Position numbers and translations under genes: made by a program. A DNA stretch of 64,000 bases. Source: a virus (taxonomy: Duplodnaviria; Caudoviricetes). The stretch covers positions 32,001-96,000 of the IMG/VR virus record IMGVR_UViG_2873737359_000001; one strand, written 5' to 3'. Positions 7,301 through 25,613 of the stretch are shown one piece after another; within the stretch, counting starts at the first letter, position 1; every line of letters starts with the position of its first letter. The notes under the pieces were generated by a model. It saw only the letters and a program-made list of their open reading frames with translations. It had not been told where the DNA came from and did no database searches.

Positions 7301-8458
7301 TTATGCAGCAGTTAATGCAAGAATCTCTTTGGCAACATCAATGTCGTCTACTGCCATCGGATTTTCATATCCTTTTTCTTTAGCCAGAACAAGTAATGGT
7401 TTCAGCGCAGCTGCTTTGCCTTTATTTGCTATACAAAAATCTTTGATCTTAGCTTTAATATCATTAAGCTCCTTTTCTTTCTTATTAGATTCCTCTACAG
7501 CCGCAATCTGTTCTGCTCTCTTTTCTGCAGCTGCATCCTGCTCTTTCTTTAATTCTGCAATAGACTTTTTGCCTTTGCTTGCTTCTGCTTTAATGGCATC
7601 TGTAAGAGCCTGAATAAGAGAATCAACATTAAAATCGAATTCTGGAACAATATCTGCAAATCTGGATTTGGAATCAATGGAATAAGAATCATCACGGAAT
7701 GTGATCTTTCTGCTTTCTTTAGCGATTACACCCTTCATGATGTCTTTCTTCTTATCGTCCTTTTTACCAGTTTTTTCCTGCACGATTTCTCGATCAATAG
7801 ATGCGACACCAAGGAAATGTAACTTCGTTTTAATTGCATTAAAATCTCTCATTGACATATTTGTTGTCAAAGATGTATATGTTTGTCCTGTTACAACATC
7901 CTCCTGCTGTCTCTGTTTAACATGTCCAATAATAATGAAGTGGACTCCAACTGATTTCAATTCCCAAAGTTTATCAAGAACAATCTCTGTTGCTTTATCC
8001 TCGCCACTCATGTATCCTCCAAAAGCAGCTTTGATTGATTTTACTGGTTTTTCTGGATGTTCCGCATTATGCATACGAATTACTTCTGGCTTTGCGATTT
8101 CGATAAGCTGATCATATGTATCAATTACAACTGTTTTAAGATCCGGATACTCTGTAGATTTATTCTCAACAACATCGTCTACAAAGTCCTCAAATCCAAT
8201 AGAGTTGGTGTATTCATCATAGTCCATAGACCACTCAGGACAATTCAGATAGTTAATTCCATCGATTCCATCTGCACCATCCTCTTTTCCACATTCAAGA
8301 AATCTATATCCATCTTCACCAACAAGTTTTTCGCACATTTCTTTGATGATGGTTGTCTTTCCAATACCGCTTTCCCCAATAAGCCCGATATTGTAGCTAA
8401 GTGGATCAATTTTAATAACATTCTTTTTTCCGTATCCCATTTTTTTATTACCTTTCAA
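7301..8458 (-). CDS. AAA ATPase (AAA_24/Sak4-like); start probably MGYGKK at 8440
   Basis: GESGIGKT, VVIDT, IIIGH, KSRF; next to the SSB-like gene. Confidence 0.75.
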   Translation of the reverse strand: MKGNKKMGYGKKNVIKIDPLSYNIGLIGESGIGKTTIIKEMCEKLVGEDGYRFLECGKEDGADGIDGINYLNCPEWSMDYDEYTNSIGFEDFVDDVVENKSTEYPDLKTVVIDTYDQLIEIAKPEVIRMHNAEHPEKPVKSIKAAFGGYMSGEDKATEIVLDKLWELKSVGVHFIIIGHVKQRQQEDVVTGQTYTSLTTNMSMRDFNAIKTKLHFLGVASIDREIVQEKTGKKDDKKKDIMKGVIAKESRKITFRDDSYSIDSKSRFADIVPEFDFNVDSLIQALTDAIKAEASKGKKSIAELKKEQDAAAEKRAEQIAAVEESNKKEKELNDIKAKIKDFCIANKGKAAALKPLLVLAKEKGYENPMAVDDIDVAKEILALTAA

Positions 8459-10596: not shown

Positions 10597-10639
10597 GCTC
10601 CTTATACATTTACTTTATTTTCTATTGTAGCGCTACAAA

Positions 10640-10712
10640 TTGGCATAGACGGAATCGAACCGTCATTATATTGATCCATGAGTCAATTATTCTACCATTG
10701 AACTATATGCCA
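10640..10712 (-). tRNA. Atypical tRNA with 8-nt anticodon loop (CU-CAUG-GA)
   Basis: Acceptor TGGCATA/TATGCCA, D-arm GTTC..GAAT, anticodon stem ATTGA/TCAAT around CTCATGGA, T-arm GACGG-TTCGATT-CCGTC. No CCA. Confidence 0.8.
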
Positions 10713-10767
10713 AACCATTACATATACAAATGAGTGCCTAATAGAGCTTATGCAAAATATCAGGCAA

Positions 10768-10841
10768 TGGAAATTCTGGGACTCGAACCCAGGACCGACC
10801 GGTTATGAGCCGGTTGCTCTAACCAACTGAGCTAAATTTCC
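10768..10841 (-). tRNA. tRNA-Ile2/Met (CAT), Ile2-like body
   Basis: GGAAATTTAGCTCAGTTGGTTAGAGCAACCGGCTCATAACCGGTCGGTCCTGGGTTCGAGTCCCAGAATTTCCA; canonical cloverleaf resembling Firmicute tRNA-Ile(CAU). Confidence 0.92.
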
Positions 10842-10911
10842 ATGCTCTGTATATGACACACTACTATGATATATCATATACAGGAAAACACTTATTATAA
10901 ATGCAGCCTAC

Positions 10912-11342
10912 GTTTATAGTTACCACAATCCTATCATTGCTAACAACACTGATCGGTTCGACCTCATATACTACCTAATTTCACCTCACTATAAACACGT
11001 TTATTCTTTCTATTCTTTTATAACTACATTAACAGCCGTCGCTGTTTTGATCCCCACTCACTTCCTCATCCTCGTTATAAGAATATAAGCTATAAAATCA
11101 ATAAGCTGCGTAATTGATATTTCCTTATATTCCAGATACGACTACACCAAACCATATTGTTTGCCTCACCATACTTTCTCACCCTCACCTCGTCATGTAT
11201 CAAGAATACTTCAGAAATATTTTCCTTTTATATGACTACACCAAACCATATTGTTTGCCTCACCATACTACCTCACCCTCGTCATATAAAAGATCATCTA
11301 TATAAATGTATGTGCTACCAAACCCTCTACCAACCTCGCACA
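10912..11342 (-). ncRNA. Array of five stem-loops with shared GAGG...GUA junction (candidate ncRNA)
   Basis: Stems at 10912-10996, 11011-11085, 11135-11201, 11225-11292 and 11311-11342. Each loop starts TAC and ends CCTC on +. Strand inferred from flanking tRNAs. Confidence 0.55.
11140..11269. repeat. 36-bp exact direct repeat (11140-11175, 11234-11269)
   Basis: gactacaccaaaccatattgtttgcctcaccatact occurs twice. Confidence 0.9.
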
Positions 11343-11523
11343 GAGCCATACCCAAAGTACAGGCTGTTCCCAACTTAGTTTCATCTCATTGTAAAATTGT
11401 AATAAAATATATTACATTTGTCTGAGACTATAATGATATGCTGATCACTGCTATCTTGATCTCAAGTAGGTTAACCTTCAGATCTAAATTAATCCGTGGC
11501 CTTTAGATATCTAAAGATCTGAA

Positions 11524-11605
11524 TACGGATAATGGGACTTGAACCCATATGAGTTTCCTCCGGAGAGTTTGAGTCTCCTGCGTCTGCCTATTTCGCCATA
11601 TCCGC
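11524..11605 (-). tRNA. tRNA-Leu(CAA)
   Basis: GCGGATATGGCGAAATAGGCAGACGC..GGAGA-CTCAAAC-TCTCC, long variable arm, TTCAAGT T-loop. Confidence 0.92.
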
Positions 11606-11627: not shown

Positions 11628-12356
11628 TCATATTTCATTCCATTGATCATCTGGAATATTTTTAATTACAGATTTTTTACTTGGTAACTTATATTTTATA
11701 CACCATTTTCTAACTGAATTATCAGTTACGCCATACTCTTTGGCAATACTAACAAATGAATCTTTTCTTATCTTATTTTTTAAATCTTCTCTTGATATTG
11801 GCGGTTGTTTCAAAACCACTTTTGGCTTAACTTTCCCCTTCTTGTTTATTTTCTTATTTGCCTTTAAATGTTTTTTAGAAGATTTTCCTGCATAATTTGC
11901 TGTTTGCGAATGACAATTCGGACATAAAATTTGCAAATTTTCTAATTTATTATTTGAATGTTCTCCATCAATGTGGTGTAACACCAACGTAATGTCTTTT
12001 CCATTCCAATTAGAAATGCCACAAATTTCACACTTATATTCTTTTACACCTTCATTTACTAACATTTTCAATAATCTACTAGATTGATAATTTTTATATT
12101 TTCCATCCAATACATCATTCAAAGACGCTTTTGTTTTTTTATGCGTTTTCAAAGCGCATTCTCTATATAAATTAGAACGATTTTTAGAATTTTTAGTTGT
12201 GTCTAATCCATATTCTATGATTAGCTTTTTCAAGGTTTCTGGATTAGAACCATGTCCATTAAGTCCAACTTTTCTTAACAAGTCACAATACCCATTTGAA
12301 GTATCAAGTAAATACTGTAATTCGTCTGGAGTAAAATCATATAATATACTTGCCAA
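11628..12356 (-). CDS. HNH homing endonuclease inserted between tRNA genes
   Basis: CEICG...LHHIDGEHSNNKLENLQILCPNCH, with a C-terminal HTH. Confidence 0.88.
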   Translation of the reverse strand: MASILYDFTPDELQYLLDTSNGYCDLLRKVGLNGHGSNPETLKKLIIEYGLDTTKNSKNRSNLYRECALKTHKKTKASLNDVLDGKYKNYQSSRLLKMLVNEGVKEYKCEICGISNWNGKDITLVLHHIDGEHSNNKLENLQILCPNCHSQTANYAGKSSKKHLKANKKINKKGKVKPKVVLKQPPISREDLKNKIRKDSFVSIAKEYGVTDNSVRKWCIKYKLPSKKSVIKNIPDDQWNEI

Positions 12357-12357
12357 A

Positions 12358-12440
12358 CTAGGGTGGTGGGATTCGAACCCACACGGAAATCTCCAATAGA
12401 GTCAAAGTCTATTATGTCTATCCAATTCCATCACACCCCA
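12358..12440 (-). tRNA. tRNA-Gln(TTG) with a long (type II-like) variable arm
   Basis: Acceptor TGGGGTG/CACCCTA plus G73; ATAGA-CTTTGAC-TCTAT; variable region TGGAGATTTCCGT; GTGGG-TTCGAAT-CCCAC. Confidence 0.85.
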
Positions 12441-12444
12441 ATGA

Positions 12445-12823
12445 TTATCCACCATTTACCAGCCTTGCAGATCACTTATGGTCAAATACAACTATACCAA
12501 TAACATTTGCCAAGGATTTGATAAAATTTTATTCTTTATTATTTACTCTTTTAACTTTGATCAAAAATAAACTTTGAATTTTAAGCTTTATTACTTGACC
12601 TTTACAACTTTAAGCTTTACAGTGCATTAAGTAATATTATTTATCCATAATATGTATTATTTATAATATATTCGAATTAAAAGTTCGACCATTATTTAAA
12701 TTTTCTACCACTGTAGACCTTTCGATTTTAGAGTAGAGAGCTTCTTTTTAGCTTTATATGAGACTATGCTCTCCTGAAAGTCTAATAAGTTGTAATTTAA
12801 AGTTTTCAGTAAACAATGGATAA
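12445..12823 (-). ncRNA. Candidate ~380-nt ncRNA with 17-bp closing stem and periodic YAAAG tract
   Basis: On the minus strand, TTATCCATTGTTTACTG pairs with TGGTAAATGGTGGATAA (G-U wobbles). About 12 YAAAG-like motifs at ~7-nt spacing at 12525-12620. Confidence 0.55.
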
Positions 12824-12841: not shown

Positions 12842-13483
12842 TCAATAATTGATTTCGATTTCCGTAATTGCGTTGCTCACAGAAAGTGCTGCATCAACCT
12901 CTGATTTAAAATTTGAGATTTCTTCTTCAAGAACATTGATCTTGTCATTTACCTTGATAGGATCGAGCAGGTCGTAGGACTGAGCAGTGATAAAATCGTT
13001 ACGAGTACGATCAAACGCTTCTGCATTTACCTTTGTGTCTTTTGCGCCATACAGACCGATGACATACTGATCTGCTTTCTTCTCAAGTTCATCTCCGTTC
13101 CTAGTTTTAATAACAGCCTGAGCATTGTTAAACTGCTGTTTCATCTTTCTTAAAAGTTCTTCTTTAAGATCCATGAAGTTGTTTTTCATATCAATGGCTT
13201 CTGCAACGGTATATTCAATTCCTGTAATTGTTACCTTTGTCCTAGCATTTGAAAGAACAACTGCCGTTTTAATCGCGTTTCTGCGTGCCATAAGATCTAC
13301 AACTTTATCGTAAGATCCAGTCATCATGTTAAGATACTCATCAACTTTAATTCCATTGATCTTTTCATTAGAATGTTTATTAGCTACACAGAATACAGCT
13401 TCACTAATTGCTAAATGAATTCTATCATCGAGAATCTTAAGTTCTGAAAGTGCTTTGTGTACTGTCATCTTTTCTGTTGTCAT
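12842..13483 (-). CDS. Coiled-coil hypothetical protein (possibly DIP1984/septicolysin-like)
   Basis: MTVHKALSELK, TVAEAI and EVDAALSVSNAITEI motifs; family call from memory. Confidence 0.6.
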   Translation of the reverse strand: MTTEKMTVHKALSELKILDDRIHLAISEAVFCVANKHSNEKINGIKVDEYLNMMTGSYDKVVDLMARRNAIKTAVVLSNARTKVTITGIEYTVAEAIDMKNNFMDLKEELLRKMKQQFNNAQAVIKTRNGDELEKKADQYVIGLYGAKDTKVNAEAFDRTRNDFITAQSYDLLDPIKVNDKINVLEEEISNFKSEVDAALSVSNAITEIEINY

Positions 13484-14709: not shown

Positions 14710-14740
14710 GTTTCTTCTCCTTTATTTTTCATTATATAAA

Positions 14741-14811
14741 CGGCCATGGAAGGATTCGAACCTTCTCCACGATAATCAAAGTATCGTGTGCTGCCATTAC
14801 ACCACAAGGCT
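14741..14811 (-). tRNA. tRNA-Gln(TTG), acceptor stem with two mismatches
   Basis: CGATA-CTTTGAT-TATCG; GAAGG-TTCGAAT-CCTTC; acceptor AGCCTTG/CATGGCC. Confidence 0.75.
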
Positions 14812-14978
14812 GCATTTATTATCAAATTTATTATTGATAGTTTCAAGATATTTTTTTTGTTACCTACAAGATATTTCTATCTCATAGGTAACATTTTTAA
14901 TTTTGTATGTTTATACAAAATTTATTATTGATAGTTTCGAGACATTTTAAAAATTGCCTCTCGCTTGACTGTATATGT

Positions 14979-15051: not shown

Positions 15052-15543
15052 TTACTTATATAACTGATACTTTTTGCTTATAGTATGTGCAATATCATCT
15101 GGAAGCGGACGAAACCATATTCCAACAATAGTAGTTCCGTTCTCCTCTTCTGGTTTCAACTCTGTAAAACAACAATCCGCAATAATACCATAATCTCTGC
15201 CTTCAATAAGCCCTAGATCATTCGCAATATCTTTTGCTTTAAGTAGTTTGTTCTTATTCTTTGCTTCGCATACTGTTTTTACAAAATTTCCGTCAATATA
15301 CTGTTCATATTCCTCTTTTGGAATATATACAGTAGACTTGTAATGCGTAATATCATCAGAATCCGCCGGGACTTCCCTTACAGGAAGCCCTATAGCATTG
15401 AAATTCATCTCGATCGGAGTAACAGGCTTGATCAATCTTGTATAATATGCCTCCACACAATGCATCAACATTGCAGACAATTTGCCTGGACTTAGGTTAA
15501 GATCTTTTCTTATTATAAATAATCTTCTATATCCCATAAACAT
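15052..15543 (-). CDS. Peptidyl-tRNA hydrolase 2 (Pth2-like)
   Basis: IRKDLNLSPGKL...H, KTVC, IADCCFTE, GTTIVGI; next to the tRNA cluster. Confidence 0.75.
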   Translation of the reverse strand: MFMGYRRLFIIRKDLNLSPGKLSAMLMHCVEAYYTRLIKPVTPIEMNFNAIGLPVREVPADSDDITHYKSTVYIPKEEYEQYIDGNFVKTVCEAKNKNKLLKAKDIANDLGLIEGRDYGIIADCCFTELKPEEENGTTIVGIWFRPLPDDIAHTISKKYQLYK

Positions 15544-25053: not shown

Positions 25054-25613
25054 TATACATACCTCCAATGATATTTTAGATTTTTAGTTTTTAATCCGTT
25101 ACACATTCTTGCAATGGTGTGTTCGCAATCACCTGTATCCATAGACGCTGAACGAATAGATCTGTATGTCTTACCTGTTTCTTCGCATAAAACGCGCTTC
25201 CACGATTGATTATTTGTTGTAGATTTTTTAGCACGTTCTATTCTTGTTCCATATTCTACATTATATTTAGGGGTACACCATTCTAAATTATCAGAACTAT
25301 TATTCATTTTATTTTCATCTATATGATTTACCTGTGTTTTATGTATAGAATCGTCATTAGTTACAAATGCTGTGGCTACCAAACGATGTATTAATTTGTT
25401 TTCAGTTTTTCCATTCTTGCATAAAATAACAAACGGATAATGCTGATTATCTTTAGGTAAATAAATTTTTAATAATCTTTCGCCAGTATTTCTATAACCA
25501 TTTTTATTTTTTACAATTCTATTCAAACTTTTAACATTACCTAAATTACTTATTTGATAATACCCCTCATATCCTATTATATCTTTCCATATTTCTATTT
25601 TTATATTATCCAT
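25053..25613 (-). CDS. NUMOD4-HNH homing endonuclease interrupting ligA
   Basis: EIWKDIIGYEGYYQISNLGNVKS (NUMOD4); HRLVA..F...VNHIDENKMNNSSDNLEWCT (HNH). Confidence 0.92.
   Translation of the reverse strand: MDNIKIEIWKDIIGYEGYYQISNLGNVKSLNRIVKNKNGYRNTGERLLKIYLPKDNQHYPFVILCKNGKTENKLIHRLVATAFVTNDDSIHKTQVNHIDENKMNNSSDNLEWCTPKYNVEYGTRIERAKKSTTNNQSWKRVLCEETGKTYRSIRSASMDTGDCEHTIARMCNGLKTKNLKYHWRYV

Follow-up and report, generated by a model that had tools for sequence, protein, structure and literature searches.

Phage T4 carries in its tRNA cluster two stable single-copy RNAs of 119 and 139 nt, rnaC and rnaD (species 1 and 2). The RNA modules described here resemble them in being small non-tRNA structured RNAs of a phage tRNA operon, presumably processed alike, and differ from them in being tandem, 55–95 nt in length, and built on a purine-rich core; no sequence relation is expected. 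Large gut phages hold many orphan structured RNAs, and a number of these have since turned out to function in new systems; RAGATH-18, for instance, is the guide RNA of IS607 TnpB nucleases (PMC11061315). The RAGATH motifs (Weinberg et al., 2017, PMC5737381) first came to light through their linkage to twister and hammerhead ribozymes. Like the GAGG-core family reported here, they are orphan structured RNAs of the same large gut phages. Unlike them, the GAGG-core motif occurs in multiple copies and is embedded between tRNAs, and no RAGATH model of Rfam 15 matched it at E up to 10.

The GAGG-core array lies on the minus strand at 10910–11343 of the window (the whole 64-kb stretch of DNA analyzed), between genes for tRNA-Leu(CAA) and tRNA-Met, both likewise on the minus strand, in a large prophage. 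It consists of five hairpins, each with a G-rich loop running GAGG...GUA. Two or three of these hairpins represent a rare RNA family of phage tRNA operons that is absent from Rfam, and the family belongs to a kind already known, the orphan structured phage RNAs. That the family and its fold are real is held with high confidence.

Organization of the array and its surroundings

A scan of both strands of the 64-kb window for GAGG...GTA segments enclosed by a stem of 5 bp or more returns all five array hairpins, which a first-pass annotation of this DNA had reported as minus-strand stem-loops, together with one further minus-strand site at 25533–25573; no such hairpin is found on the plus strand of the window. 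Block shuffles give a chance level of 3.6 hairpins per 64 kb on average, or ∼0.02 expected per 430 nt. The annotation had also judged the stretch to be a non-coding array of structured RNA on the tRNA strand, without a credible open reading frame (ORF), and both judgments agree with the present results: relatives keep the plan on the tRNA strand, no minus-strand ORF of at least 40 aa occurs within the array stretch, and the relative L007 lacks both of the overlapping plus-strand TTG ORFs (63 and 73 aa). Promoter and terminator searches gave no convincing candidate inside the array.

The family plan consists of a closing helix P1, GAGG-N(1–2)-GAGG, a variable tract, GG-N-GAGG, a P2 hairpin, GUGUA, and the returning strand P1', with P1 of 4–14 bp and P2 both free in sequence and a variable tract of 4–20 nt, such that two helices without sequence constraint enclose ∼17 invariant, purine-rich positions. 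The features of the locus, in the order of minus-strand reading and with the method or search model (R1 to R3) that identifies each, are as follows.

11524–11605, minus strand: tRNA-Leu(CAA), upstream boundary of the non-coding stretch (ARAGORN; Rfam tRNA model, 52.8 bits)
11343–11523, minus strand: leader of ∼180 nt from tRNA-Leu to the first hairpin (MAFFT alignments, with poor register)
11311–11342, minus strand: U5, short hairpin with a 5-bp stem and the 22-nt loop GAGGUUGGUAGAGGGUUUGGUA (scan, alignment)
11294–11310, minus strand: spacer ACAUUUAUAUAGAUGAUC, just upstream of the first family unit, U4 (alignment)
11224–11293, minus strand: U4, canonical family unit, P1 of 13 bp (scan; models R2 and R3)
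11135–11201, minus strand: U3, canonical family unit, P1 of 3+5 bp with a 2-nt bulge (scan; models R2 and R3)
11018–11080, minus strand: U2, degenerate family unit, P1 of 7 bp (scan; model R1 only)
10910–10998, minus strand: U1, second module type ("type C"), P1 of 9–11 bp (scan, locus comparison)
10767–10842, minus strand: tRNA-Met(CAU), downstream boundary (ARAGORN; Rfam tRNA model, 74.3 bits)

The array units are heterogeneous, U3 and U4 being canonical, U2 decayed, U1 of type C, and U5 an accessory hairpin. The original description is retained for the stems and the GAGG...GUA loops and is corrected in that only U3 and U4, and weakly U2, fit one covariance model. U4 is laid out as P1, GAGG-GU-GAGG-UAGUAU-GG-U-GAGG, P2 CAAAC/GUUUG, and GUGUA, and U3 as P1 GAUAC[AU]GAC/GUCGUAUC, GAGG-U-GAGG-...-GG-U-GAGG, and the same P2 and GUGUA; the 36 identical nt that had been noted in these two units (AGUAUGG...GUGUAGUC) can be read directly from the sequence. 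U2 has GAGG-AU-GAGG, a third box decayed to GGGGAU, P2 AACAGC/GCUGUU with a GACG loop, and AAUGUA as J2. U1 is longer than U2–U4 and is laid out as GAGGU...UAGGUAGU...GAGGU, a long inner hairpin, and the end ...UUGUGGUA; it is the last unit before tRNA-Met, a position kept in L007, L032, L004, and L168 with differing P1 sequences. Each of U1–U4 has an inner hairpin P2, and the loops are therefore not the simple single-stranded ones first described. U5 is a separate hairpin type without P2 that models R1–R3 do not reach. Its counterpart in L007 and L032 has another stem and no GAGG start, so that this start is not conserved, and its L168 copy has GA in place of GG.

The leader has blocks kept in L004, L168, L007, and L032, for example GAAGGCCA.GG and CUGAAGGUUA..ACCUA. 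The spacer that follows U5 reads ACAUUUAUAUAGAUG(A/G)AUC and is invariant between the window lineage (11294–11310) and L007/L032 (L007 8664–8684); it is more conserved than the helices of these two lineages, whose stems have diverged, and may be a processing site or a promoter-like element, with no consensus promoter called in it. Between U1 and tRNA-Met, a 10-bp hairpin CUGUAUAUGA...UCAUAUACAG is present on the minus strand at 10847–10883; it is missing in L004, L168, L007, and L032, where the tRNA lies within 8 nt.

Several neighboring genes are themselves unusual. The tRNA at 10639–10713 (minus strand; Rfam tRNA model, 63 bits) has an 8-nt anticodon loop, read by ARAGORN as "catg", and the same gene occurs in L004 and L168; L032 has a different odd tRNA ("agcg"). 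An 85-nt tRNA-Gln(UUG) with a long extra arm (12357–12441, minus strand) lies directly upstream of an HNH endonuclease ORF (11628–12356), and a normal tRNA-Gln(UUG) is found at 14740–14812. Near the tRNA and non-coding RNA region, the phage encodes a PTH2-type peptidyl-tRNA hydrolase (15052–15543, minus strand; PF01981, E 4e-9).

In a cmscan search of the whole window against Rfam 15 at gathering thresholds, only tRNAs and RAGATH-27 are matched and the array is not; at E up to 10 the array gives just two chance matches of 12 bits, and the L013 version of the motif has no match at E up to 5. The earlier statement that the array matches no known family is upheld to this extent, newness being set against Rfam 15, and the family may overlap a candidate of Weinberg et al. 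(2017) that lies outside Rfam. The carrier phages are rich in RAGATH motifs, with RAGATH-27 in the window and RAGATH-4, -16, -33, and -36 in related loci. The RAGATH-27 copy (RF03100, 92.9 bits; 12735–12820, minus strand) lies 1.4 kb upstream of the array, directly after the phrog_1491 gene (12842–13483), a pairing found also in L004, L007, and L032, and ∼290 nt of ORF-free sequence separate it from the tRNA at 12357–12441.

Conservation of the fold and distribution of the family

The fold is supported by covariation in both helices. In an anchor-based table of units, pairing is kept across 13 distinct P1 and nine distinct P2 sequences. When seven units from other phages are aligned with MAFFT, pairing is kept in 93.8% of cells, and compensatory change is seen at 10 of 16 pairs; none of 500 shuffles reaches these values, and sliding the partners makes the pairing collapse. 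MAFFT was unable to align window-type units with the others, and model-guided alignments and the anchor-based table were used instead. The 15-unit model-guided alignment, which leans towards structure, has compensatory change at each of the six P1 pairs, and 96% of its cells pair. These counts overstate independence because few lineages are known and many of them are related. Of the stem pairs, 23 of 229 are G-U, which fixes the RNA strand as the tRNA strand. A DNA-level repeat was considered and is unlikely, since G-U pairs correspond to A-C mismatches on the opposite strand.

Three search models were built. Model R1, made from U4 and its L004 copy, is too narrow; it alone reaches U2, at 25.1 bits. 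Covariance model R2 was built only from L013, L014, L035, L058, L068, L096, and L073, with the window units left out, and nevertheless finds window units U3 (28.1 bits, E 2e-5) and U4 (21.7 bits, E 1e-3); it scores L176, unseen when the model was built, at 78.8 bits. With the final model, R3, the scores are 62.9 bits for U3 and 52 bits for U4. Searches with R2 and R3 reach none of U2, U1, and U5, and U1 and U5 are reached by no model. Conservation and covariation in relatives, on which the first-pass annotation had made its proposal depend, are thus found: relatives keep the array, both helices covary, and a model that excludes the window recovers its two canonical units. False pattern matches elsewhere in IMG/VR have a closing stem of less than 4 bp in 79 of 82 cases, and in the host genome the core pattern occurs seven times, with the full anatomy in the two array copies only.

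Relatives in IMG/VR were collected from loci around relatives of the neighboring phrog_1491 gene and by pattern scans of the collection. The family plan is present in 15 IMG/VR phage contigs besides the window, and in all 16 sequences the unit lies inside a tRNA cluster on the tRNA strand. Stricter patterns applied to the whole IMG/VR collection added only L168, L176, and L180; as the collection was searched by exact patterns, divergent members are missed.

Four settings can be distinguished. L004 and L168 are close relatives of the window with a corresponding array, in which the number of hairpin units of all types falls from five in the window to four in L004 and three in L168, and that of family units from three to two and one, L168 carrying a U4/U3 recombinant. 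The Leu-to-Met spacer of L007 and L032 is syntenic, with stems that differ from those of the window. A single unit is found in L013, L014, L035, and L176 and in L058, L111, L068, L141, and L096, where it forms the 3' end of a conserved RNA of ∼300 nt that starts after a tRNA and is unrelated to the window leader. L073 and L180 have a lone unit in a tRNA-rich region.

The conserved ORF-free RNA of the L013 and L058 groups measures ∼250–300 nt (L013 7688–7985; L058 1513–1740, minus strand; L068 ∼480–725; L096 657–898, minus strand), starts with AAGYCCACUUGAAAYGAUAUAUAGUGGCUGG right after the tRNA, always ends in one GAGG-core unit, and is unmatched in Rfam at E up to 5. The site of the RNA cassette is occupied in L008 and L010 by a 130-aa ORF that matches no known family. 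The 200-kb contig L180, which carries an L073-type unit, has two tRNAs with CUA anticodons (amber suppressors; 7528–7603 and 7812–7886), and this phage may read TAG as a sense codon.

Other collections yield no members. A blastn search of the region against 50,697 GenBank phages gives no match, and a DNA search of 41 related genomes gives only a chance 42-nt match inside an RNase R-like gene. Model R3 finds nothing in 39 same-genus or 150 class-level genomes, nothing else in the host genome, and no new members in a search of 50 loci. Among GTDB relatives of the phrog_1491 gene, none of the five loci has the motif.

Proposed binding modules and rival explanations

The preferred reading, to which a probability of roughly 0.4 is assigned, is that the GAGG-core unit is a trans-acting binding module made together with the tRNAs. 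The array would be part of one non-coding minus-strand transcript produced with the phage tRNAs and carrying tandem small RNA modules, each of which would fold independently; tRNA-processing nucleases would free or stabilize the modules, which would then act in trans. The invariant purines between the helices would form a compact non-Watson-Crick core, and in the preferred form of this core G-A and A-U loop-E-like pairs would extend P1, after which the four invariant GG doublets would form a G-quadruplex of two layers that carries P2 stacked on it. Such a core would bind a host factor or small ligand one-to-one, and the copy number (one to three family units per phage) would set the dose. The binding-module mechanism taken by itself is tentative and somewhat unlikely.

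Several features are consistent with this proposal. A set of approximately 17 invariant purine-rich positions between free helices is characteristic of a compact tertiary core of the kind found in aptamers and small ribozymes, and the occurrence of the unit in three unrelated contexts, together with the change of copy number in near-identical phages, suggests a self-contained module for which dose is important. Of 15 units, 14 have at least four GG tracts, with loops mostly of 3, 4–20, and 3 nt, the exception being U2 with three tracts. The GG doublets are the most constant feature of the family, and deviant GAGG boxes keep them (UGGG in L032A, AAGG in L007B). Against the quadruplex core, instability is predicted for RNA quadruplexes of two layers with long loops, and the model leaves the invariant A of each GAGG and the whole of GUGUA unexplained. 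With the G-quadruplex option of ViennaRNA, the type C unit of L004 is the only one whose minimum-energy fold contains a quadruplex, and none is placed in any type A unit. No protein gene is common to the neighborhoods of the units across the phage groups, nor is a protein partner encoded there. That the units are natural stem-closed two-layer G-quadruplex aptamers soaking up a host metabolite, signal molecule, or defense protein is an improbable extension of the proposal; if true, they would be an RNA-only sponge of a new class, expressed in several copies from tRNA operons.

The unit always ends a larger conserved RNA in the L013 and L058 groups, so that it could be a domain and not a free RNA. 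The units may instead be structural domains of a larger "ornate" phage RNA, providing tertiary or multimerizing contacts as in GOLLD and ROOL, the RNA being the whole tRNA-Leu to tRNA-Met spacer of ∼680 nt here and the ∼300-nt RNA plus its unit elsewhere. In L013, L035, L058, L068, and L096 the unit always comes after the conserved RNA of ∼250–300 nt, the array of the window lineage is preceded by the conserved 180-nt leader and the invariant spacer, and GOLLD and ROOL also occur in prophages near tRNAs (PMC5737381). This explanation is nonetheless unlikely, as L073 and L180 have the unit without either upstream RNA, a fixed architecture would hardly be expected to vary from one to three units among close relatives, no relation is visible by eye between the upstream RNAs of the two groups, and Rfam gives no match to GOLLD, ROOL, or any other large RNA. 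The invariant nucleotides between two variable helices are also typical of small ribozymes, and the RAGATH motifs held by the carrier phages are ribozyme-associated by origin, so that each unit might be a new small self-cleaving class or a processing element cutting the tRNA-operon transcript. This is quite improbable: the hammerhead, twister, twister-sister, pistol, hatchet, and HDV-like Rfam models are unmatched at E up to 10, J2 is without C and, by this reading of the sequence, an HDV-like catalytic cytosine and with it an HDV-like fold are excluded, no conserved pseudoknot was found, and processing does not need three tandem copies. Three structural candidates were rejected along the way. 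Pairing of AUAC in the variable tract with GUGUA as a pseudoknot fits only the L013, L058, and L073 groups and not the window units, the strands do not fit a k-turn, and an anticodon-loop (UGUA) decoy does not apply because the motif is not in a 7-nt loop.

The first-pass annotation had favored a display of many single-stranded Shine-Dalgarno (SD)-like motifs, and a GAGG sponge titrating 30S subunits, CsrA, or another SD-binding protein or RNase would be in keeping with three GAGG boxes per unit, several units per transcript, and a GAGGUGA in U3 and L007A that can be read as complementary to the anti-SD tail. Nevertheless, this explanation is very unlikely. The base preceding the 43 GAGG boxes is C in 18, U in 13, A in 11, and G in only one, so that GGAGG is avoided; the base between boxes is free (U, C, A, GU, AU), which interrupts any longer anti-SD pairing; and each box has a set position in a two-helix junction, much as in the core of an aptamer or ribozyme. 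Because the phage's own genes use AGGAG-type SD sequences, a 30S sponge would harm the phage as well. For protein targets, CsrA (PF02599) is unmatched in the 100%-complete host genome, with positive controls, and TRAP (PF02081) is absent from it, which speaks against a CsrA-type sponge, whereas the general idea that the RNA binds and titrates some protein is part of the preferred reading; moreover, a unit has only three conserved GAG triplets versus the 9–11 required for TRAP binding, and its conserved box is GAGG followed by a variable base, from which the GGA of a CsrB-type sponge arises only where that base is A. Still less probable is a cis-acting riboswitch-type aptamer controlling downstream genes. 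It would suit L013, L014, and L035, where the unit lies ∼25 nt upstream of the SD sequence of a 66-aa ORF followed by a radical-SAM gene, and RNAfold predicts an alternative fold that competes with P1 in L013 and L035. Only the L013 group has a downstream ORF, however, the next gene being a tRNA in the window, L004, L007, L032, L168, L176, L068, and L096; L008 and L010 keep those ORFs without the unit, and there is no conserved terminator or SD-sequestering helix. In the predicted alternative fold (L013 7986–8078, L035 7977–8069), the P1 5' strand pairs with the core GGCGAGGACG, and CAUACA(U/C) with GUGUAUG, which would make a two-state switch specific to that lineage possible. Tandem non-coding units in a phage could finally represent a type III antitoxin or pseudo-antitoxin array, a CRISPR-repeat mimic, or a guide-RNA array. 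This reading, which includes the antitoxin mimic and guide array of the earlier proposal, is largely refuted and extremely unlikely. The units are not identical repeats, differing in length (32–89 nt) and sequence with a long identical tract only in U3/U4; no toxin, Cas, or TnpB/IscB-like gene is adjacent, the neighbors being the HNH endonuclease, tRNAs, and an unknown 135-aa ORF; and no toxin, effector, or other protein gene is common near the units across phage groups.

The family is small, sharply defined, modular, and multi-copy, and is therefore easy to test at the bench. A core that proved to be a natural stem-closed G-quadruplex, a new ribozyme, or a new aptamer would constitute a new natural RNA fold, and titration of a host factor would show that a phage tRNA operon has a role beyond supplying tRNAs; if neither holds, the family is one more catalogued orphan motif.

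Comparison with known RNAs

The multi-copy arrangement has parallels among bacterial sponges and antitoxin RNAs. CsrB and RsmZ are likewise composed of several hairpins that vary in the stem and share a conserved purine motif, in a copy number that implies titration, but their defining motif is GGA in hairpin loops, whereas GAGG-core units carry the GAGG box in two-helix junctions. ToxI resembles the array as a set of tandem non-coding RNA units in phage-related DNA; however, ToxI has identical 36-nt repeats followed by a toxin gene, neither of which holds for the GAGG-core array.

At the level of the core, the 5'-GAG and GUA-3' beside P1 resemble one half of the loop E duplex of bacterial 5S rRNA, a non-canonical helix extension of the sarcin-ricin type, with G-A, A-U reverse Hoogsteen, and G-G pairs. 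The resemblance is only local, as the 5' strand bears a 20–38-nt insertion and the Rfam 5S model is unmatched. Spinach, Mango, and Corn, aptamers obtained by selection, are built around a stem-closed G-quadruplex core (PMC6391945), and the stem-closed two-layer fold is so far known from such laboratory-selected RNAs. The GAGG-core units share with them a short G-rich core closed by a helix, short loops, at least four GG tracts, and the capacity for a second helix to emerge from the core; they differ in having no homology to these laboratory-selected RNAs and in that their putative quadruplex is read from the sequence pattern.
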